Of a stretch of DNA of 64,000 nucleotides, positions 1 through 15,400 are shown piece after piece; position 1 is the stretch's first letter; each line of letters begins with the position of its first letter. A model generated the notes under the pieces. That model saw nothing but the letters and a program-made list of their open reading frames with translations. It did no database searches and had not been told where the DNA came from. The translations under genes were made by a program, and so were the position numbers. This DNA comes from Eledone cirrhosa (Eukaryota), in assembly GCA_964016885.1 (NCBI GenBank), contig OZ024750.1:42780001-42844000 (forward strand), given 5' to 3'.

Positions 1-3000
1 TCATCATTGTCACTGTCACCACCACAGTTGTCATCATCATTGTCACTGTCACCACCACAGTTGTCATCATCATTGTCACTGTCAGCACCACAGTTGTCAT
101 CATCATTGTCATTGTCACCAACACAGTTGTCACCATCATTGTCATTGTCACCACCACAGTTGTCATCATCATTGTCTTTGTCACCACCACAGTTGTCATC
201 ATCATTGTCATTGTCATCACCACAGTTGTCATCATCATTGTCACTGTCACCACCACAGTTGTCATCATCATTGTCACTGTCACCACCACAGTTGTCATCA
301 TCATTGTCACTGTCACCACCACAGTTGTCATCATCATTGTCACCACCATAGCTGTCATCATCATTGTCTTTGTCACCACCACAGTTGTCAACATTATTGT
401 CATTGTCACCACCACAGTTGTCATCATCATTGTCATTGTCACCACCACAGTTGTCATCATCATTGTCACTGTCACCACCACAGTTGTCATCATCATTGTC
501 AGTGTCATCACCACAGTTGTCATCATCATTGTCACTGTCACCACCACAGTTGTCATCATCATTGTCATTGTCACCACCACAGTTGTCATCATCATTGTCA
601 TTGTCACCACCACAGTTGTCATCGTCATTGTCATTGTCATCACCACAGTTGTCATCATCATTGTCACTGTCACCACCACAGTTGTCATCATCATTTTCAT
701 TGTCACCACCACAGTTGTCATCGTCATTGTCATTGTCATCACCACAGTTTTCATCATCATTGTCACTGTCACCACCACAGTTGTCATCATCATTGTCATT
801 GTCATCACCACAGTTGTCATCATCATTGTCATTGTCACCACCACAGTTGTCATCATCATTGTCATTGTCATCACCACAGTTGTCATCATCATTGTCACTG
901 TCACCACCACAGTTGTCATCATCATTGTCATTGTCATCACCACAGTTGTCATCATCATTGTCATTGTCACCACCACAGTTGTCATCGTCATTGTCATTGT
1001 CACCACCACAGTTGTCATCATCATTGTCATTGTCATCACCACAGTTGTCATCATCATTGTCACTGTCACCAACACAGTTGTCACCATCATTGTCATTGTC
1101 ACCACCACAGCTGTCATCATCATTGTCATTGTCACCACCACAGTTGTCATCGTCATTGTCATTGTCATCACCACAGTTGTCATCATCATTGTCATTGTCA
1201 CCACCACAGTTGTCACCATCATTGTCATTGTCACCACCACAGTTGTCACCACCACAGCTGTCATCATCATTGTCATTGTCACCACCACAGTTGTCATCAT
1301 CATTGTCACTGTCACCACCACAGTTGTCATCATCATTGTTATTGTCACCACCACAGTTGTCATCATCATCTTCACTGTCACTACCACAGTTGTCATCATC
1401 ATTGTCATTGTCACTACCACAGTTGTCATCATCATTGTCATTGTCACCAACACAGTTGTCATCATCATTGTCATTGTCACCACCACAGTTGTCATCATCA
1501 TTGTCATTGTCACCACCACAGTTGTCATCTCTGTTGTCACTGTCACCACCACAGTTGTCATCATCATTGTCATTGTCACCACCACAGTTGTCATCTCTGT
1601 TGTCACTGTCACCACCACAGTTGTCATCATCATTGTCATTGTCACCACCACAGTTGTCATCATCATTGTCATTGTCACTACCACAGTTGTCATCATCATT
1701 GTCATTGTCACCACCACAGTTGTCATCATCGTTGTCATTGTCAACACCACAGTTGTCATCATCATTGTCACTGTCACCAACACAGTTGTCATCATCATTG
1801 TCATTGTCACCACCACAGTTGTCATCTTTGTTGTCACTGTCACCACCACAGTTGTCATCATCATTGTCATTGTCACCACCACAGTTGTCATCATCATTGT
1901 CATTGTCACTACCACAGTTGTCATCATCATCATCATTGTCACCACCACAGTTGTCATCATCATTGTCACTGTAACCACCACAGTTGTCACCATCATTGTC
2001 ACTGTCACCACCACAGTTGTCATCATCATTGTCACTGTCAACACCACAGTTGTCATCATCATTGTCATTGTCATCACCACAGTTGTCATCATCATTGTCA
2101 TTGTCACCACCACAGTTGTCATCATCATTGTCACTGTCACCACCACAGTTGTCATCATCATTGTCATTGTCACCACCACAGTTGTCATCATCATTGTAAT
2201 TGTCACCACCACAGTTGTCATCATCATTGTCACTGTCACCAACACAGTTGTCATCATCATTGTCATTGTCACCACCACAGTTGTCATCATCATTGTCACT
2301 GTCACACCACAGTTGTCATCATCATTGTCATTGTCACCACCACAGTTGTCATCATCATTGTAATTGTCACCACCACAGTTGTCATCATCATTGTCATTGT
2401 CACCACCACAGTTGTCATCATCATTGTCACTGTCACCACCACAGTTGTCATCACTGTTGTCATTGTCATCACCACAGTTGTCATCATCATTGTCACTGTC
2501 ACCACCACAGTTGTCACCACCACAGTTGTCATCATCATCTTCACTGTCACCACCACAGTTGTCATCATCATTGTCCCTGTCACCACCACAGTTGTCATCA
2601 TCATTGTCATTGTCACCACCACAGTTGTCATCATCATTGTCATTGTCACCACCACAGTTGTCATCATCATTGTCACTGTCACCACCACAGTTGTCATCAT
2701 CATTGTCACTGTCACCACCACAGTTGTCATCATCATTGTCATTGTCATCACCACAGTTGTCATCATCATTGTCACTGTCACCACCACAGTTGTCATCTCT
2801 GTTGTCACTGTCACAACCACAGTTGTCATCATCATTGTCACTGTCACCACCACAGTTGTCATCATCATTGTCACTGTCACCACCACAGTTGTCATCACTG
2901 TTGTCATTGTCATCACCACAGTTGTCATCATCATTGTCACTGTCACCACCACAGTTGTCATCATCATTGTCACTGTCACCACCACAGTTGTCATCATCAT

Positions 3001-6000
3001 TGTCACTGTCACCAACACAGTTGTCATCATCATTGTCACTGTCACCACCACAGTTGTCATCACTGTTGTCATTGTCATCACCACAGATGTCATCATCATT
3101 GTCACTGTCACCACCACAGTTGTCATCATCATTGTCACTGTCACCACCACAGTTGTCACCATCATTGTCATTGTCACCACCACAGTTGTCATCATCATTG
3201 TCATTGTCACCACCACAGTTGTCATCATCATTGTCATTGTCATCACCACAGTTGTCATCATCATTGTCATTGTCATCACCACAGTTGTCATCATCATTGT
3301 CATTGTCACCACCACAGTTGTCACCACCACAGTTGTCATCATCATTGTCACTGTCACCACCACAGTTGTCATCATCATTGTCATTGTCACCACCACAGTT
3401 GTCATCGTCATTGTCATTGTCACCACCACAGTTGTCATCATCATTGTCACTGTCACCACCACAGTTGTCATCATCATTGTCATTGTCATCACCACAGTTG
3501 TCATCATCATTGTCATTGTCACCACCACAGTTGTCATCATCATTGTCACTGTCACCACCACAGTTGTCATCATCATTGTCATTGTCACCACCACAGTTGT
3601 CATCATCATTGTCACTGTCACCACCACAGTTGTCATCATCATTGTCACTGTCACCACCACAGTTGTCATCATCATTGTCATTGTCATCACCACAGTTGTC
3701 ATCATCATTGTCATTGTCATCACCACAGTTGTCATCATCATTGTCATTGTCATCACCACAGTTGTCATCATCATTGTCACTGTCATCACCACAGTTGTCA
3801 TCATCATTGTCATTGTCACCACCACAGTTGTCACCGTCATTGTCATTGTCACCACCACAGATGTCACCACCACAGCTGTCATCATCATTGTCATTGTCAC
3901 CACCACAGCTGTCATCATCATTGTCACTGTCACCACCACAGTTGTCATCGTCATTGTCATTGTCATCACCACAGTTGTCATCATCATTGTCATTGTCACC
4001 ACCACAGTTGTCATCGTCATTGTCACTGTCACCACCACAGTTGTCATCATCATTGTAATTGTCACCACCACAGTTGTCATCATCATTGTCACTGTCACCA
4101 CCACAGTTGTCATCATCATTGTCACTGTCACCACCACAGTTGTCATCATCATTGTCATTGTCACCACCACAGTTGTCATCATCATTGTCATTGTCACCAC
4201 CACAGTTGTCATCATCATTATCACTGTCACCACCACAGTTGTCATCATCATTGTCATTGTCACCACCACAGTTGTCATCATCATTGTCATTGTCACCACC
4301 ACAGTTGTCATCATCATTGTCACTGTCACCACCACAGTTGTCATCATCATTGTCATTGTCACCACCACAGTTGTCATCGTCATTGTCATTGTCACCACCA
4401 CAGTTGTCATCATCATCATTGTCATTGTCATCACCACAGTTGTCATCATCATTGTCATTGTCACCACCACAGTTGTCACCATCATTGTCACTGTCACCAC
4501 CACAGTTGTCATCATCATTGTCACTGTCACCACCACAGTTGTCATCATCATTGTCATTGTCACCACCACAGTTGTCATCATCATTGTCACTGTCACCACC
4601 ACAGTTGTCATCATCATTGTCACTGTCACCACCACAGTTGTCATCATCATTGTCATTGTCACCATCACAGTTGTCATCATCATTGTCATTGTCACCACCA
4701 CAGTTGTCATCGTCATTGTCACTGTCACCACCACAGTTGTCATCATCATTTTCACTGTCACCACCACAGTTGTCATCATCATTGTAATTGTCACCACCAC
4801 AGTTGTCATCGTCATTGTCACTGTCACCACCACAGTTGTCATCATCATTGTAATTGTCACCACCACAGTTGTCATCGTCATTGTCACTGTCACCACCACA
4901 GTTGTCATCATCATTGTCATTGTCACCACCACAGTTGTCATCTCTGTTGTCACTGTCACCACCACAGTTGTCATCATCATTGTCACTGTCACCACCACAG
5001 TTGTCATCATCATTGTCATTGTCACCACCACAGTTGTCATCATCATTGTCACTGTCACCACCACAGTTGTCATCATCATTGTCATTGTCACCACCACAGT
5101 TGTCATCATCATTGTAATTGTCACCACCAGAGTTGTCATCATCATTGTCATTGTCACCACCACAGTTGTCATCATCATTGTAATTGTCACCACCACAGTT
5201 GTCATCATCATTGTCACTGTCACCACCACAGTTGTCATCATCATTGTCATTGTCACCAACACAGTTGTCATCATCATTGTCAGTCACCACCACAGTTGTC
5301 ATCATCATTGTCATTGTCACCAACACAGTTGTCATCATCATTGTCAGTCACCACCACAGTTGTCATCATCATTGTCATTGTCACCAACACAGTTGTCATA
5401 ATCATTGTCAGTCACTACCACAGTTGTCATCATCATTGTCATTGTCACCACCACAGTTGTCATCATCATTGTCAGTCACCACCACAGTTGTCATCATCAT
5501 TGTCATTGTCACCACCACAGTTGTCATCATCATTGTCACTGTCACCACCACAGTTGTCATCATCATTGTCACTGTCACCACCACAGTTGTCATCATCATT
5601 GTCACTGTCACCACCACAGTTGTCATCATCATTGTCATTGTCACCACCACAGTTGTCATCATCATTGACAGTGTCACCACCACAGTTGTCATCATCATTG
5701 TCATTGTCACCACCACAGTTGTCATCATCATCTTCACTGTCACCACCACAGTTGTCATCATCATTGTCCCTGTCACCACCACAGTTGTCATCATCATTGT
5801 CATTGTCACCACCACAGTTGTCATCATCATTGTCATTGTCACCACCACAGTTGTCATCATCATTGTCACTGTCACCACCACAGTTGTCATCATCATTGTC
5901 ACTGTCACCACCACAGTTGTCATCATCATTGTCATTGTCATCACCACAGTTGTCATCATCATTGTCACTGTCACCACCACAGTTGTCATCCCTGTTGTCA

Positions 6001-9000
6001 CTGTCACAACCACAGTTGTCATCATCATTGTCACTGTCACCACCACAGTTGTCATCATCATTGTCACTGTCACCACCACAGTTGTCATCACTGTTGTCAT
6101 TGTCATCACCACAGTTGTCATCATCATTGTCACTGTCACCACCACAGTTGTCATCATCATTGTCACTGTCACCACCACAGTTGTCATCATCATTGTCATT
6201 GTCACCACCACAGTTGTCATCATCATTGTCACTGTCACCACCACAGTTGTCATCACTGTTGTCATTGTCATCACCACAGTTGTCATCATCATTGTCACTG
6301 TCACCACCACAGTTGTCATCATCATTGTCACTGTCACCACCACAGTTGTCATCGTCATTGTCATTGTCACCACCACAGTTGTCATCATCATTGTCACTGT
6401 CACCACCACAGTTGTCATCATCATTGTCATTGTCATCACCACAGTTGTCATCATCATTGTCATTGTCACCACCACAGTTGTCATCATCATTGTCACTGTC
6501 ACCACCACAGATGTCATCATCATTGTAATTGTCACCACCACAGTTGTCATCGTCATTGTCACTGTCACCACCACAGTTGTCATCATCATCTTCACTGTCA
6601 CCACCACAGTTGTCATCATCATTGTCATTGTCACCACCACAGTTGTCATCGTCATTGTCATTGTCACCACCACAGTTGTCATCATCATTGTCACTGTCAC
6701 CACCACAGTTGTCATCATCATTGTCACTGTCACCACCAGAGTTGTCATCATCATTGTCATTGTCATCACCACAGTTGTCATCATCATTGTCATTGTCATC
6801 ACCACAGTTGTCATCATCATTGTCATTGTCATCACCACAGTTGTCATCATCATTGTCACTGTCATCACCACAGTTGTCATCATCATTGTCATTGTCACCA
6901 CCACAGTTGTCACCATCATTGTCATTGTCACCACCACAGTTGTCACCACCACAGCTGTCATCATCATTGTCATTGTCACCACCACAGCTGTCATCATCAT
7001 TGTCATTGTCACCACCACAGTTGTCATCGTCATTGTCATTGTCATCACCACAGTTGTCATCATCATTGTCATTGTCACCACCACAGTTGTCATCGTCATT
7101 GTCACTGTCACCACCACAGTTGTCATCATCATTGTAATTGTCACCACCACAGTTGTCATCATCATTGTCACCACCACAGTTGTCATCATCATTGTCATTG
7201 TCATCACCACAGTTGTCATCATCATTGTCATTGTCACCACCACAGTTGTCATCATCATTGTCACTGTCACCACCACAGTTGTCATCATCATTGTCATTGT
7301 CACCACCACAGTTGTCATCATCATTGTCATTGTCACCACCACAGTTGTCATCATCATTGTCACTGTCACCACCACAGTTGTCATCATCATTGTCATTGTC
7401 ACCACCACAGTTGTCATCATCATTGTCATTGTCACCACCACAGTTGTCATCATCATTGTCACTGTCACCACCACAGTTGTCATCATCATTGTCATTGTCA
7501 CCACCACAGTTGTCATCGTCATTGTCATTGTCACCACCACAGTTGTCATCATCATTGTCACTGTCACCACCACAGTTGTCATCATCATTGTCATTGTCAT
7601 CACCACAGTTGTCATCATCATTGTCATTGTCACCACCACAGTTGTCACCATCATTGTCACTGTCACCACCACAGTTGTCATCATCATTGTCACTGTCACC
7701 ACCACAGTTGTCATCATCATTGTCATTGTGACCACCACAGTTGTCATCTCTGTTGTCACTGTCACCACCACAGTTGTCATCATCATTGTCACTGTCACCA
7801 CCACAGTTGTCATCATCATTGTCACTGTCACCACCACAGTTGTCATCATCATTGTCACTGTCACCACCACAGTTGTCATCATCATTGTCACTGTCACCAC
7901 CACAGTTGTCATCATCATTGTAATTGTCACCACCACAGTTGTCATCGTCATTGTCACTGTCACCACCACAGTTGTCATCATCATTGTAATTGTCACCACC
8001 ACAGTTGTCATCGTCATTGTCACTGTCACCACCACAGTTGTCATCATCATTGTCATTGTCACCACCACAGTTGTCATCTCTGTTGTCACTGTCACCACCA
8101 CAGTTGTCATCATCATTGTCACTGTCACCACCACAGTTGTCATCATCATTGTCACTGTCACCACCACAGTTGTCATCATCATTGTCACTGTCACCACCAC
8201 AGTTGTCATCATCATTGTCATTGTCACCACCACAGTTGTCATCGTCATTGTCACTGTCACCACCACAGTTGTCATCATCATTGTCACTGTCACCACCACA
8301 GTTGTCATCATCATTGTCATTGTCACCACCACAGTTGTCATCATCATTGTCACTGTCACCACCACAGTTGTCATCGTCATTGTCACTGTCACCACCACAG
8401 TTGTCATCGTCATTGTCACTGTCACCACCACAGTTGTCATCATCATTGTCACTGTCACCACCACAGTTGTCATCGTCATTGTCACTGTCACCACCACAGT
8501 TGTCATCATCATTGTCACTGTCACCACCACAGTTGTCATCGTCATTGTCACTGTCACCACCACAGTTGTCATCATCATTGTCATTGTCACCAACACAGTT
8601 GTCATCATCATTGTCATTGTCACCACCACAGTTGTCATCATCATTGTCATTGTCATCACCACAGTTGTCATCATCATTGTCACTGTCACCACAACAGTTG
8701 TCATCATCATTGTCATTGTCATCACCACAGTTGTCATCATCATTGTCATTGTCACCACCACAGTTGTCACCATCATTGTCATTGTCACCACCACAGTTGT
8801 CACCATCATTGTCATTGTCACCACCACAGTTGTCACCATCATTGTCATTGTCACCACCACAGTTGTCATCATCATTGTCATTTTCAACACCACAGTTGTC
8901 ATCATCATTGTCATTGTCACCACCACAGTTGTCACCATCATTGTCATTGTCATCACCACAGTTGTCATCATCATTGTCACTGTCACCACCACAGTTGTCA

Positions 9001-9653
9001 TCATCATTGTCACTGTCACCACCACAGATGTCATCATCATTGTCATTGTCACCACCACAGTTGTCATCATCATTGTCATTGTCATCACCACAGTTGTCAT
9101 CATCATTGTCATTGTCACGACCACAGTTATCACCATCATTGTCATTGTCACCACCACAGTTGTCATCGTCATTGTCACCACCACAGTTGTCATCATCATT
9201 GTCATTGTCATCACCACAGTTGTCATCATCATTGTCACTGTCACCACCACAGTTGTCATCATCATTGTCATTGTCATCACCACAGTTGTCATCATCATTG
9301 TCATTGTCACCACCACAGTTGTCACCATCATTGTCATTGTCACCACCACAGCTGTCATCATCATTGTCATTGTCACCACCACAGTTGTCATCGTCATTGT
9401 CATTGTCATCACCACAGTTGTCATCATCATTGTCATTGTCATCACAACAGTTGTCATCATCATTGTCATTGTCATCACCACAGTTGTCATCATCATTGTC
9501 ATTGTCACCACCACAGTTGTCATCATCATTGTCATTGTCATCACCACAGTTGTCATCATCATTGTCATTGTCATCACCACAGTTGTCATCATCATTGTCA
9601 GTCACCAACACAGTTGTCATCATCATTGTCATTGTCACCACCACAGTTGTCAT
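1..9653. repeat. 33-bp tandem satellite array, left part (continues beyond window start)
   Basis: Continuous head-to-tail copies of GTTGTCATCATCATTGTCA(T/C)TGTCACCACCACA with point variants and occasional 15-, 27-, 31- and 36-bp units; interrupted mid-monomer at 9653. Confidence 0.99.
9650..9653 (+). other. Target site duplication TCAT, left copy
   Basis: Left flank ends GTTG-TCAT; right flank begins TCAT-CATCATTGTC; an intact monomer has only one TCAT at this position. Confidence 0.85.
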
Positions 9654-10019
9654 TGTAGCGGTTGTCTCCCTTGTTTTGATTGGGATCTAGACGGGAGGTG
9701 GAACCCTTTCTGCGACTTCCGGTCAGAGCCCTATAAAACTAACAACTTTAGGCTTCCTCTCTCTTTTTGCCTTTTCGGCACCAGGTCAAGAGTCTTCTCA
9801 TTTGGCTCTGCCATTAATTTGGCCAACAGGCGCCTGGCCTTAGCCAGGCGCCCTCTGCCAGCCGCGTTTGCCTGGCAATCAAAACGGTAACTACTAACTT
9901 TGTTTCATTCTAACATCTATCTTTGACATGTCAAGTATTCTATCTACCGTTAATTAAATATTATATACACAAACATTGTCTCGTTTTGTTACATTCATAC
10001 ACCCAGTATCCTCGCTATA
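9654..10019 (+). repeat. 5' LTR (LTR-A), 366 bp
   Basis: Direct repeat of 12121-12485; terminal inverted repeat TGTAGCG...CGCTATA (6/7 match); contains TATAAAA (9732-9738) and ATTAAA (9953-9958). Confidence 0.93.
9715..9738 (+). promoter_or_regulatory. Putative LTR core promoter: ETS-like ACTTCCGG plus TATA box
   Basis: ACTTCCGGTCA (9715-9725) then TATAAAA (9732-9738); the same arrangement occurs in LTR-B (11442-11452, then GATAAAA). Confidence 0.55.
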
Positions 10020-10020
10020 T

Positions 10021-10052
10021 TGGTAACCCTGACGTGATACGAACACGCAGCC
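10021..10052 (+). promoter_or_regulatory. Primer binding site 1, complementary to tRNA-Trp 3' end, extended to about 32 nt
   Basis: TGGTAACCCTGACGTGATACGAACACGCAGCC versus the recalled reverse complement of metazoan tRNA-Trp(CCA), TGGTGACCCCGACGTGATTCGAACACGCAGCC; begins 1 nt after the LTR end. Confidence 0.88.
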
Positions 10053-10089
10053 GTTCATCGCTATAAGGGTCACCCCCCAAAAAAGAAAA

Positions 10090-10358
10090 AAATAGCACAT
10101 CTGGTTTTGTGAGTAACATTACGAATACACAGCAAATTTAGCGACAAACTATGAAAATACTCAAGGACACGCACACACGCACATGTGGAATTCGCACAGA
10201 CATACTTTTTCTCTCACGCATCAATTAACTGTCGCATTTCACCAATATATATATATATGTTTCTCGTTTCTTACAACGAACACTTTCAAAACAAAAAAAA
10301 CATTTCACGATATATATATATGTTTCTCGTTTCTTACAACGAACTCTTTCAAAACACA
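10090..10358 (+). repeat. Internal block X, copy 1 (~270 bp, post-PBS leader)
   Basis: Direct repeat of 11783-12052 at offset 1693; contains a ~66-bp tandem duplication starting at 10235 and 10301 with (AT)n and A-runs. Confidence 0.95.
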
Positions 10359-10932
10359 CAAAAAAAAAAAAGAAATTTGATATTCTTTAAAAAACATTTC
10401 AACAGGAACATTTATTTTCGATGAACCATTGCCTTTTGTTCATCGTTTTCTTCATCGTTCAAGTTTTTTGTTTTTTTCCAAAGTTCACACCTATAATTAT
10501 GCTGATTGAAGCCTTTCTTTTTCATCATTGTTACTTTCAAAATTGCACTATCATTTTCTCGCGCGTTAGAAATATTTTTTTTCAACCTTGTATTGTCACG
10601 TGTAGGCAGCATAAATTCTCGATTCACTGAGATGTCTCTACTCACAGACAGCCGCACGCCAGAGATAGCATTTCTCCCCCAAGGATTCTTCAGCCTTAAG
10701 CTATATTCTTCTATTTGCCGGTTTATAAATTTACAATGTAAATTTACCGTTGATAACCGCGCATTTAGTAAGAATGCTTATTTCTCTGGTCGCTGGCCTC
10801 TGGACCCTTCCAGATCAACGCATTCTCAACATCGACCATCAACTTCGGCTGCTATTTCTAGCACTTTGCGCAACTCATTTTTTCTGAAAAATTTTTTGTC
10901 TACTGTGAATTTAAACACCGAATACGCTCACT

Positions 10933-11024
10933 CAGCAGCAACACCAACAGCAATATAACAGCAACAGCAATATAACAGCAACAGCAATACAGCAGCAACA
11001 GCAACAGCAATACAGCAACTCAGC
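10933..11024. repeat. CAG/CAA-rich simple repeat inside the element
   Basis: Imperfect copies of AACAGCAACAGCAATA(T/C) and CAGCAA. Confidence 0.85.
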
Positions 11025-11315
11025 TTCACCAACAACCAAAGCCAGAGAATTTATTTTTGCAGCACTCTTCCTGTGAGAAAATCCATTTGGATGTTGGAAA
11101 TTTCACGATATACCACAGAAAAAAAAACCACCTGCATTCATTCTCTGGAACACACTTTCTTTCCTGCTGTCATGTGATTGCACACCTGTGAACTATATTT
11201 TGTACATTTGAACTTTTGACTTTTCTTACTTCCATTACTCTGTACCATATTTTTCATGCCTCTTACATGGTCGCCATCTTACTCCATGCATGCTTCTTTC
11301 GATTTTTTATGTTTT

Positions 11316-11335
11316 AAAAATCTGGCGGGGGATAC
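11316..11335 (+). promoter_or_regulatory. PPT-like tract 1, preceding the internal LTR-B
   Basis: AAAAATCTGGCGGGGGATAC directly followed by TGTAG; parallels AAAATTCTGGCGGGAGGTTA|TGTAG before the 3' LTR, and both are preceded by TTTCGATTTTT. Confidence 0.8.
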
Positions 11336-11763
11336 TGTAGTAAGAGTTGCCTCCCCTGCCACGACAATCGAATCGCTGTTCTCTAGACAGGAAGTAGGTG
11401 GAGTTGCTTCCCTTTGGGATTGACCAAACTCCCTAGTGGTCACTTCCGGTCAACAGAGATAAAAGGAGCGATTAACCGCGAAATCTCTCTCTCGCCTCCT
11501 GATTCCTGAAGTGGTAACATCTTCGACCATAGCTGGTGATTCTTTCTGGACGACCCTTTCGTTACCAGCACAATCCAGCTCACCAGCCTGAGATGAGAGC
11601 GCCAAGACATTTTCTACCAACTTCACAATGGTATTATTGCCATCGGGTAACAACCCTTTACCTTATACACCTTTGACTTCTATGAAGTAAAACTTTATCA
11701 CACACACCAGTACTCTTTGTCTTTTATATTATGTTGCATGTGCACCGATATCTATTTCCTAAA
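11336..11763 (+). repeat. Internal divergent LTR (LTR-B), ~428 bp
   Basis: Starts TGTAG right after a PPT-like tract and ends (CCTAAA, degenerate) just before a perfect PBS. Shares colinear motifs with LTR-A: GTTG.CTCCC.TG, TCTAGAC, AGGTGGA, ACTTCCGGTCA followed by a TATA-like ATAAAA. Right boundary approximate. Confidence 0.8.
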
Positions 11764-11764
11764 G

Positions 11765-11782
11765 TGGTGACCCCGACGTGAT
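11765..11782 (+). promoter_or_regulatory. Primer binding site 2, perfect 18-nt tRNA-Trp PBS
   Basis: TGGTGACCCCGACGTGAT, the canonical complement of the 18 3'-terminal nucleotides of tRNA-Trp including CCA. Confidence 0.93.
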
Positions 11783-12052
11783 AAATGGCACATCTGGTTT
11801 TGTGAGTAACATTACGAATACACAGCAAATTTAGCGACAAACTATGAAAATACTCAAGGACACGCACACACGCACATGTGGAATTCGCACAGACATACTT
11901 TTTCTCTCACGCATCAATTAACTGTCGCATTTCACCAATATATATATATATGTTTCTCGTTTCTTACAACGAACACTTTCAAAACAAAAAAAAACATTTC
12001 ACGATATATATATATGTTTCTCGTTTCTTACAACGAACTCTTTCAAAACACA
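11783..12052 (+). repeat. Internal block X, copy 2
   Basis: Matches 10090-10358 except for one substitution near the start (AAATAG/AAATGG) and an A8 vs A9 run. Confidence 0.95.
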
Positions 12053-12100
12053 ACATTCTCGCCAACTTGCTACATATTTTCATTTCGATTTTTATACACT

Positions 12101-12120
12101 AAAATTCTGGCGGGAGGTTA
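12101..12120 (+). promoter_or_regulatory. PPT-like tract 2, preceding the 3' LTR
   Basis: AAAATTCTGGCGGGAGGTTA abutting TGTAGCG. Confidence 0.82.
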
Positions 12121-12485
12121 TGTAGCGGTTGTCTCCCTTGTTTTGATTGGGATCTAGACGGGAGGTGGAACCCTTTCTGCGAATTCCGGTCAGAGCCCTA
12201 TAAAACTAACAACTTTAAGCTTCCTCTCTCTTTTTGCCTTTTCGGCACCAGGTCAAGAGTCTTCTCATTTGGCTCTGCCATTAATTTGGCAGAGGGCGCC
12301 TGGCCTTAGCCAGGCGCCCTCTGCCAGCCGCGTTTGCCTGGCAAACAAAACGGTAACTACTAACTTTGTTTCATTCTAACATCTATCTTTGACATGTCAA
12401 GTATTCTATCTACCGTTAATTAAGTATTATATACACAAACATTGTCTCGTTTTGTTACATTCATACACCCAGTATCCTCGCTATA
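12121..12485 (+). repeat. 3' LTR (LTR-A), 365 bp
   Basis: By manual alignment differs from the 5' LTR at 4 single substitutions plus one clustered change (CAACA vs AGAG). Confidence 0.93.
12287..12326. other. Perfect 18-bp GC-rich inverted repeat with 4-nt loop in the 3' LTR
   Basis: TGGCAGAGGGCGCCTGGC-CTTA-GCCAGGCGCCCTCTGCCA; only the inner 10 bp pair perfectly in the 5' LTR (9820-9860). Confidence 0.92.
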
Positions 12486-12489
12486 TCAT
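12486..12489 (+). other. Target site duplication TCAT, right copy
   Basis: Matches 9650-9653. Offsets to the empty paralogous site at 15881 (6231 and 3395) differ by 2836 = 2832 + 4. Confidence 0.85.
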
Positions 12490-15400
12490 CATCATTGTCA
12501 CTGTCACCAACACAGTTGTCATCATCATTGTCACTGTCACCACCACAGTTGTCATCATCATTGTCATTGTCACTACCACAGTTGTCATCATCATTGTCAT
12601 TGTCACCACCACAGTTGTCACCAACACAGTTGTCATCATCATTGTCAGTCACCACCACAGCTGTCACCATCACAGTTGTCATCATCATTGTCACTGTCAC
12701 CACCACAGTTGTCATCATCATTGTCACTGTCACCATCACAGTTGTCATCATCATTGTCACTGTCACCACCACAGTTGTCATCATCATTGTCATTGTCACC
12801 ACCACAGTTGTCATCATCATTGTCATTGTCACCACCACAGTTGTCATCATCATTGTCATTGTCACCACAACAGTTGTCATCATCATTGTCAGTCACCACC
12901 ACAGCTGTCATCATCATTGTCATTGTCACCACCACAGTTGTCATCATCATTGTCACTGTCACCACCACAGTTGTCATCATCATTGTCATTGTCACCACCA
13001 CAGTTGTCATCATCATTGTCATTGTCACCACCACAGTTGTCATCATCATTGTCATTGTCACCACCACAGTTGTCATCATCATTGTCACTGTCACCACCAC
13101 AGTTGTCATCATCATTGTCATTGTCACCACCACAGTTGTCACCACCACAGTTGTCATCATCATTGTCATTGTCACCACCACAGTTGTCATCATCATTGTC
13201 AGTCACCACCACAGCTGTCATCGTCATTGTCATTGTCACCACCACAGTTGTCATCATCATTGTCACTGTCACCACCACAGTTGTCATCATCATTGTCACT
13301 GTCACCACCACAGTTGTCATCATCATTGTCATTGTCACCACCACAGTTGTCATCATCATTGTCAGTCACCACCACAGCTGTCATCATCATTGTCATTGTC
13401 ACCACCACAGTTGTCATCATCATTGTCACTGTCACCACCACAGTTGTCATCATCATTGTCACTGTCACCACCACAGTTGTCATCATCATTGTCATTGTCA
13501 TCACCACAGTTGTCATCATCATTGTCATTGTCACCACCACAGTTGTCATCATCATTGTCACTGTCACCACCACAGTTGTCATCATCATTGTCATTGTCAC
13601 CACCACAGTTGTCATCATCATTGTCATTGTCACCACCACAGTTGTCATCATCATTGTCACTGTCACCACCACAGTTGTCATCATCATTGTCATTGTCACC
13701 ACCACAGTTGTCATCATCATTGTCATTGTCACCACCACAGTTGTCATCATCATTGTCACTGTCACCACCACAGTTGTCATCATCATTGTCATTGTCACCA
13801 CCACAGTTGTCATCGTCATTGTCATTGTCACCACCACAGTTGTCATCATCATTGTCACTGTCACCACCACAGTTGTCATCATCATTGTCATTGTCATCAC
13901 CACAGTTGTCATCATCATTGTCATTGTCACCACCACAGTTGTCACCATCATTGTCACTGTCACCACCACAGTTGTCATCATCATTGTCACTGTCACCACC
14001 ACAGTTGTCATCATCATTGTCATTGTCACCACCACAGTTGTCATCATCATTGTCACTGTCACCACCACAGTTGTCATCATCATTGTCACTGTCACCACCA
14101 CAGTTGTCATCATCATTGTCATTGTCACCACCACAGTTGTCATCATCATTGTCATTGTCACCACCACAGTTGTCATCGTCATTGTCACTGTCACCACCAC
14201 AGTTGTCATCATCATTGTCACTGTCACCACCACAGTTGTCATCATCATTGTAATTGTCACCACCACAGTTGTCATCGTCATTGTCACTGTCACCACCACA
14301 GTTGTCATCATCATTGTAATTGTCACCACCACAGTTGTCATCGTCATTGTCACTGTCACCACCACAGTTGTCATCATCATTGTCATTGTCACCACCACAG
14401 TTTTCATCTCTGTTGTCACTGTCACCACCACAGTTGTCATCATCATTGTCACTGTCACCACCACAGTTGTCATCATCATTGTCACTGTCACCACCACAGT
14501 TGTCATCATCATTGTCATTGTCACCACCACAGTTGTCATCGTCATTGTCACTGTCACCACCACAGTTGTCATCATCATTGTCACTGTCACCACCACAGTT
14601 GTCATCATCATTGTCACTGTCACCACCACAGTTGTCATCGTCATTGTCACTGTCACCACCACAGTTGTCATCGTCATTGTCACTGTCACCACCACAGTTG
14701 TCATCATCATTGTCACTGTCACCACCACAGTTGTCATCGTCATTGTCACTGTCACCACCACAGTTGTCATCATCATTGTCACTGTCACCACCACAGTTGT
14801 CATCGTCATTGTCACTGTCACCACCACAGTTGTCATCATCATTGTCATTGTCACCAACACAGTTGTCATCATCATTGTCATTGTCAACACCACAGTTGTC
14901 ATCATCATTGTCATTGTCATCACCACAGTTGTCATCATCATTGTCACTGTCACCACAACAGTTGTCATCATCATTGTCATTGTCATCACCACAGTTGTCA
15001 TCATCATTGTCATTGTCACCACCACAGTTGTCACCATCATTGTCATTGTCACCACCACAGTTGTCACCATCATTGTCATTGTCACCACCACAGTTGTCAC
15101 CATCATTGTCATTGTCACCACCACAGTTGTCACCATCATTGTCATTGTCACCACCACAGTTGTCATCATCATTGTCATTGTCACCACCACAGTTGTCACC
15201 ATCATTGTCATTGTCATCACCACAGTTGTCATCATCATTGTCACTGTCACCACCACAGTTGTCATCATCATTGTCACTGTCACCACCACAGTTGTCATCA
15301 TCATTGTCATTGTCACCACCACAGTTGTCATCATCATTGTCATCACAACAGTTGTCATCATCATTGTCATTGTCACCACCACAGTTGTCACCATCATTGT

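Follow-up and report, generated by a model that had tools for sequence, protein, structure and literature searches.

The locus described here raises the question of how a single retroelement insertion came to contain three long terminal repeats (LTRs) of two different types, and of whether such an arrangement arose once or has spread. The element occupies positions 9654 to 12485 of a 64,000-nucleotide stretch of Eledone cirrhosa DNA (contig OZ024750.1, 42,780,001 to 42,844,000), the whole of which is called the window below. Its order is LTR-A, primer-binding site (PBS), block X, about 0.95 kb of further inner sequence, polypurine tract (PPT), LTR-B, PBS, X, PPT and LTR-A, and one 4-bp target-site duplication (TSD) encloses all of these parts. 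With its terminal repeats, its TSD, two PBSs and two PPTs, it is a non-coding, non-autonomous LTR retrotransposon. Our tentative answer, to which we give a little less than an even chance, is that it arose by a one-off or rare template switch between co-packaged A-type and B-type RNAs, which exchanged in their shared inner sequence.

The A-B-A order, the coordinates and the single TSD put forward in the original prediction were confirmed by alignment and by reconstruction of the empty site. The left copy of the TSD (TCAT, 9650-9653, plus strand, as are all of the element's parts) is matched by the right copy (TCAT, 12486-12489), and deletion in silico of the element and one TCAT produced a 28-mer that is present 329 times in the satellite DNA of the window, so that the TSD is real and not satellite background. 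The first unit begins with LTR-A1 (366 bp, 9654-10019, TGTAG...CTATA), which has a TATA-like box at 9732 and a GC-rich hairpin, and continues with the A-type PBS (10021-10038), a 51-bp A-type spacer that separates the PBS from X and is missing from the second unit (10039-10089), the conserved 5' inner block X1 (10090-10358), the inner sequence U (10359-11216) and a B-type 3' tail (11217-11335) with a purine-rich tract at 11324-11332. LTR-B (428 bp, 11336-11763, TGTAG...CTAAA) is followed by the B-type PBS (11765-11782), the second copy of X, X2 (11783-12052), the A-type 3' tail (12050-12120), with a purine-rich tract at 12109-12117, and LTR-A2 (365 bp, 12121-12485). X2 and the A-type tail meet at a 3-base microhomology, ACA (12050-12052), where about 0.9 kb of U is gone.

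Both PBSs start one base past their LTR and both PPTs are short, each with one C. Since the outer, A-type PBS differs from the inner one at 2 of 18 bases, the inner, B-type PBS probably fits the primer tRNA better. Comparison of X1 and X2 showed 268 identities, one mismatch (at the fifth base) and one difference in the length of a poly-A run. LTR-B is flanked by ATAC on the left and GTGG on the right and therefore has no TSD of its own; these flanks, together with the recurrence elsewhere of the joint between the B-type tail (tail-B) and LTR-B, agree with the prediction that LTR-B lies between a PPT and a PBS and is not a nested solo LTR. The LTRs end in CTATA in both A copies and in CTAAA in B, and the canonical TG...CA termini were not found; at all three places (10015-10019, 11759-11763 and 12481-12485) the ends differ from CTACA despite the clean TSD.

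Evidence from outside the window came from a search of public sequencing runs, in which nine runs listed from five studies contained part of the element; no RNA run was listed among them. Runs X1 and X4 (organism A), run X5 (organism B) and run X10 (restriction-site-associated DNA (RAD), from another sample of organism A) were aligned on 9614-12525 at 80% likeness, while runs of organisms C to F (shares of 0.05-0.09) were left out of the alignment and given no weight. The results from these runs hold among the matches listed, beyond which lie a further 336 differences, 543 loose ends and 1900 pieces, and summed contig depth is not equivalent to copy number, because some sums are raised by overlaps and others are divided among variants.

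Every part of the element is multi-copy in these runs, and U is the ordinary, non-coding inner sequence of an abundant non-autonomous family of about 2 kb; the roughly 1 kb of inner DNA that had been described as unique is so only within the window. LTR-A, the spacer (high depth at 10059), X and U (3936 in a single contig at 11121) were all deep in run X1, and LTR-B was shallower, with contigs of depth 502 (no other letters in 150) and 335 (one in 197), which together have 346 of 347 letters in common with the window. A contig of run X4 (10011-10157) covers the end of LTR-A, the PBS, the spacer and X contiguously. The summed depths of the A-type tail (tail-A, 3310) and of tail-B (668) in run X1 came to 3977, compared with 3936 for U, and the ratio of LTR-A to tail-A depth was 2.0-2.3, as expected for a terminal repeat.

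Because most family copies turn unlike the window past 11216, its last 120 or so bases before LTR-B constitute a minority, B-type tail. The joint between this tail and LTR-B was found in run X4 (record 13, 11267-11519, with 14 other letters in 252, that is 6% divergence), in organism B (run X5 record 23, 11307-11418, with nine other letters) and in reads of run X10 whose start is the SphI site (11288); at 11375, 379 of 412 reads depart from the window and represent a B variant. Since the joint recurs elsewhere and B variants dominate the RAD reads, LTR-B stands for a family of several variants and is not peculiar to this locus. That it lies behind its PPT tail in organism B and in further samples as well agrees with the prediction that it is in a functional position.

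The letters preceding tail-A (12050) were U-like and not X-like in all three contig runs aligned (loose ends of runs X1 and X4, and run X5 record 24), and in both printed loose ends they resemble the end of U. Full A-X-U-A elements therefore exist, and because tail-A normally follows inner sequence, the second unit is a deletion form lacking about 0.9 kb and joined at ACA, rather than a separate design. An ordinary member of the family is hence an LTR-PBS-X-U-tail-LTR element of about 2 kb, whose modules may be A-type, B-type or of further kinds. Inner deletions at other places are found in the family too, from 10396 to 10520 in run X1 and from 10410 to 11225 in eight reads of run X10.

We then compared the LTRs with one another. 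LTR-A1 and LTR-A2 are 98% alike (359 identities in 367 columns, with five mismatches and three gap columns), and all three gaps and one of the mismatches fall within the GC-rich hairpin. The window bases at 9697, 9714 and 9765 are the minority among the aligned copies, yet they are common to A1 and A2. As for the hairpin itself (9815-9875 and 12280-12341), its predicted stability as RNA is -44 kcal/mol in A2, where the 18-bp arms are perfect (12287-12326), and -29 kcal/mol in A1, where it is shorter; the gaps cluster in its left arm in a manner that resembles a quasi-palindrome change.

LTR-B had been credited with no more than short motif similarity to LTR-A. Global alignment showed instead that the two are collinear, distant homologues, as their score exceeded those of 300 of 300 dinucleotide shuffles in each of four scoring schemes (z of 4.6-6.4), while three unrelated element stretches used as controls gave z values of 1.9, -0.6 and -0.2. 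Local alignment was significant in only one of the four schemes and BLAST returned no match between A and B past the first bases of the LTR. The words shared in U3 keep the same order in both LTRs, and one contig of run X4 matches LTR-B up to 11418, continues with 28 other letters and then matches LTR-A from 12191, so that it reads as an LTR intermediate between B and A. The homology of A and B rests on this contig and on the global collinearity. The 71 bases preceding LTR-B and LTR-A2 are likewise homologous (z of 7.8, with 0 of 500 shuffles reaching the score). Judged by their homologous LTRs and PPT tails, the same PBS type, the common X and U and the intermediate contig, A and B are sister subfamilies of one family. 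The fusion of two related non-coding parasites that had been proposed thus stands as a recombination in shared inner sequence, with sister subfamilies of one family, and not two unrelated families, as its partners.

The arrangement of these modules indicates where the exchanges took place. The first unit has an A-type start (U5-A, PBS-A and spacer) and a B-type end (tail-B and U3-B), while the second has the reverse, and together they amount to an A element to which a complete circuit of a B element has been added, with one of the two copies of U missing. Because each tail keeps its LTR and each PBS region its preceding LTR, the switch points lie in the inner sequence. The parents would have been A-PBS-X-U-tailA-A and B-PBS-X-U-tailB-B, each of about 2 kb, mobilised perhaps by a Gypsy helper that is itself unseen. 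The minus strand would begin on the A RNA, where U3-A and tail-A would be copied, and would move over to the B RNA where X ends, either through the ACA microhomology or, if the A parent was already deleted, through homology. On the B RNA, X, PBS-B and the U5-R (repeat region) of B would be copied, after which the normal R-to-R jump would rebuild one whole LTR-B internally. Tail-B and U would then be copied, after which homology would bring the strand back to the A RNA, on which X, the spacer and PBS-A would be copied, and integrase would insert the A-ended product with a single TSD. That there was one insertion event is supported by the single TSD around the whole, by the 98% likeness of the outer LTRs and by the minority bases that these have in common. 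Template switching is the likeliest cause, while integration of a one-LTR B circle gives an identical product.

Several observations weigh against this template-switch origin. The outer LTRs are not identical (five mismatches and three gaps), and at 9751/12218 both bases occur elsewhere, the base of A2 being present in 16 of the 28 reads of run X10 aligned on A1, a difference for which one round of reverse transcription is not a sufficient explanation. Between X1 and X2 there is one mismatch when 3.7 would be expected from the outer LTRs, a deficit that is not significant (P of 0.12). The ratio of LTR-B to tail-B depth is 1.1 when window-identical alleles are counted and 1.6 when all aligned contigs are, which is below the value of 2 for a B that is only terminal and fits many internal or tandem B copies. 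Among the listed matches there was no B-ended element with its own TSD, the B-I-B parents being our reconstruction, and no LTR-B running into unrelated flank. That the deletion joint between X2 and tail-A was not found in other copies among the same matches speaks for a one-off, but with so many loose ends and pieces outside the listing this absence proves nothing.

Clearly less probable, but still a serious possibility, is a propagating A-B-A family, in which transcripts of a recombinant founder began in LTR-A1, read through LTR-B and ended in LTR-A2, and in which the whole was integrated anew; many of the B copies would then lie inside A-ended elements. The difference between the LTR-B/tail-B ratio (1.1-1.6) and the LTR-A/tail-A ratio (2.0-2.3) is in its favour, as is the near-identity of the window's LTR-B with multi-copy contigs of run X1 (one difference in 347). 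The depth in run X10 was 4.2 over 11672-11769 and 0.02 in the preceding bin, as would be produced by about five mates reading from the AATT site at 11828 back across PBS-B into LTR-B. Three-LTR TRIMs (miniature retrotransposons with terminal repeats) that moved as a whole have been described from maize (bioRxiv 10.1101/010850) and postulated for pear (PMC4079214), according to the accessible parts of these articles. However, the copies that contain U roughly account for the depth of tail-A without a large class of deleted units, no contig among the listed matches crosses the X2/tail-A joint, and tandem B arrays would also reduce the LTR-B/tail-B ratio. Read-through of the internal LTR and the better-matched internal PBS should, moreover, both hinder copying of the whole unit. 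Were such propagation to occur, which we doubt somewhat, the sister LTR would be a passenger with its own PPT and better-matched PBS, the element would have two priming sites and two promoters, and it would serve as a standing intermediate for swaps of LTR modules onto a single conserved inner sequence.

An origin in which an A element was inserted first and a one-LTR B circle later crossed over in X or U, thereby duplicating X, is in our view unlikely; the deletion would have occurred in the A parent or afterwards. The product would be exactly an A element plus a B circle less about 0.9 kb, X1 and X2 are without substitution over the 264 bases past the type-marking fifth base, and A1 and A2 differ from each other more (5 in 364) than LTR-B does from the contigs of its family (1 in 347), which weakly suggests a younger B part. 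This age hint is not significant (P of about 0.12), however, and X is in any case conserved throughout the family and in organism B. A germ-line crossover within a few hundred bases of homology, inside satellite DNA, would also be required, and no direct precedent for retrotransposons was found in the literature searched. A nested solo LTR-B or an assembly error is very improbable: although no listed contig or read spans the whole element and runs X1 to X3 contain just 0.55-0.57 of its sampled words (a partial share because contigs drop rare variants), LTR-B is without a TSD and lies exactly between PPT tail and PBS, the joint of the tail with LTR-B was met again in other samples, X would not have been duplicated by a solo insertion, and the two ends have the same, correct TSD.

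The coding capacity of the element and its class were then considered. The longest inner stop-free frame is of 150 amino acids, and none of the 10 inner frames tested reached the Pfam cut-off (best E of 0.011). The Gypsy lineage is therefore not placeable by protein, because the element is without gag, reverse transcriptase and integrase. The 18-mer of PBS-B, which we provisionally take to be a tRNA-Trp primer-binding site, adjoins an LTR region in nine IMG/VR contigs, one of which was checked by Pfam and is retroviral. A 22-base stretch of X had no match in viral contigs or metagenome contigs and a gapped motif common to LTR-A and LTR-B had none in metagenome contigs, and since neither search gave a relevant match, no autonomous helper was found. 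An exact 22-base match to X in a Bacillus genome (L010, 5001-5022) was isolated, without flanking likeness, and was taken as chance. Rfam gave three weak matches (E of 0.2-0.7), all far below the gathering scores. A Helenus, Ajax or Cassandra type was rejected, as no Rfam match came near gathering, ARAGORN output was empty and neither strand of LTR-A1 or LTR-B has a B box; the comparison is based on the small-RNA-derived LTRs of Helenus and Ajax as given in the accessible text of PMC10886601. A retrozyme was also rejected, there being no Rfam hammerhead and no hammerhead core motif on the plus strand.

Other observations concern variation within the family. A 63-bp duplication is present inside X (10225-10358 in X1), one copy of which is missing in three reads of run X10, and a CAA/CAG microsatellite in U (10936-11019) is variable in length. 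A contig of run X4 follows LTR-A to 9886 and then has 255 other letters, which represents a further module, and at least three different tails follow U past 11216, one of them in 6457 RAD reads. X had no other letters in a 144-base contig of run X4 or a 164-base contig of organism B, and run X5 record 18 (10111-10276) is letter-identical to it save for two gaps; the LTR-A and U pieces of organism B are 98% alike to those of the window. Identity of X across organisms indicates either a young family in close relatives or a strongly conserved block, for example a packaging signal. In run X4 (88 million contig letters) the depth of the right satellite flank was 13 compared with hundreds on the element, while that of the flank in run X1 was about 17,700; the pattern in run X4 might be that of an RNA library.

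The host sequence is a single array of a 33-bp satellite (1-64000, with no strand assigned), of about 1900 copies and flat composition, in which the element is the sole large non-satellite insert. The empty form (joint of 9649 to 12486) was also present in one contig and two reads of the public runs, which mirror the satellite generally and not this site. The 33-bp unit has no stop in several frames, which results in stop-free frames thousands of codons long (1-9653 and 12486-64000) whose translations are repeats of His/Cys, Val/Ile/Thr and Asp/Asn/Gly and which are probably non-coding. Long blocks of satellite unit variants also seem to recur, which suggests higher-order duplication.

If the element is a one-off, it cleanly preserves a past recombination between two diverged subfamilies of a non-autonomous element. 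It would then show that, by way of the conserved inner block, A and B RNAs are packaged together or the corresponding DNAs recombine. In this manner a single inner sequence could gain new LTR/PPT modules, of which the runs show several. Du and colleagues reportedly described LTR swapping between autonomous and non-autonomous partners in 2010. Should A-B-A have spread, two different LTRs would be stably maintained in one retroelement, a situation that we did not find described, and read-through and the choice between two primer sites would become directly testable.

Inter-subfamily recombination through co-packaged RNAs, for which heterodimer packaging is proposed, and LTR swaps between autonomous and non-autonomous elements have been reviewed (PMC6894440; for this and the other sources below, save the Triticeae, rice and maize study, our statements hold for the accessible parts of the text). 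The recombinants reviewed resemble the present element in that one inner sequence is found with different LTR/PPT modules, but they have two LTRs, while here both LTR types are kept in one insertion. The CsRn1 lineage of Ty3/Gypsy has a tRNA-Trp PBS and a 4-bp TSD (PMC3630058). The 4-bp TSD of our element agrees with this feature, as does its PBS if the putative tRNA-Trp type is correct, while the absence of gag, reverse transcriptase and integrase and the LTR ends in TA and AA do not.

Three-LTR TRIMs are common in pear (PMC4079214) and maize (10.1101/010850), and tandem TRIMs occur in bivalves (biv-TRIM, PMC6934838). Tandem-array TRIMs and multi-LTR Cassandra elements are, like ours, non-coding with internal LTRs between PPT and PBS, L3I2 being their commonest form. 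TRIMs are, however, smaller than about 1 kb and have one LTR type, while our element has an inferred unit of about 2 kb, and a deleted one of still about 1.1 kb, with LTRs of 366 and 428 bp of two types. A TRIM was thus rejected by size, and a tandem-array TRIM by LTR type, the middle LTR being a distant homologue of the outer ones and not the same LTR.

The closest likeness is to the TSD-flanked three-LTR insertions that Sabot and Schulman (2007) attributed to template switching in Triticeae, rice and maize (PMC1950507). These have the order LTR-inner-LTR-inner-LTR, a single TSD, near-identical outer LTRs and an origin from two co-packaged RNAs, and their outer LTRs are closer to each other than to the middle one, as was found here. 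In those insertions the switch occurs in the R regions of close members and leads to like or chimeric LTRs, while here the exchanges are placed in inner sequence and the middle LTR has diverged strongly. The elements are also non-coding here, and the PBS type and TSD length make an animal host likely. In rice, 45 of 63 three-LTR elements have TSDs and the outer LTRs may be non-identical (Zeng and Sun, bioRxiv 10.1101/452573); the pre-integration model for these complexes has same-family LTRs recombining within the LTR, in contrast to the two LTR types and inner exchange of our element. In the published three-LTR elements compared, as far as the accessible texts go, all three LTRs are from one family, and a TSD-flanked element with a strongly diverged middle LTR was not found in the literature searched, outside of which lie Repbase, Dfam, most subscription papers and supplements. 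The element thus works like the known template-switch complexes, yet it departs from them in exchanging outside the R region and from TRIMs in its size and its two types of LTR.

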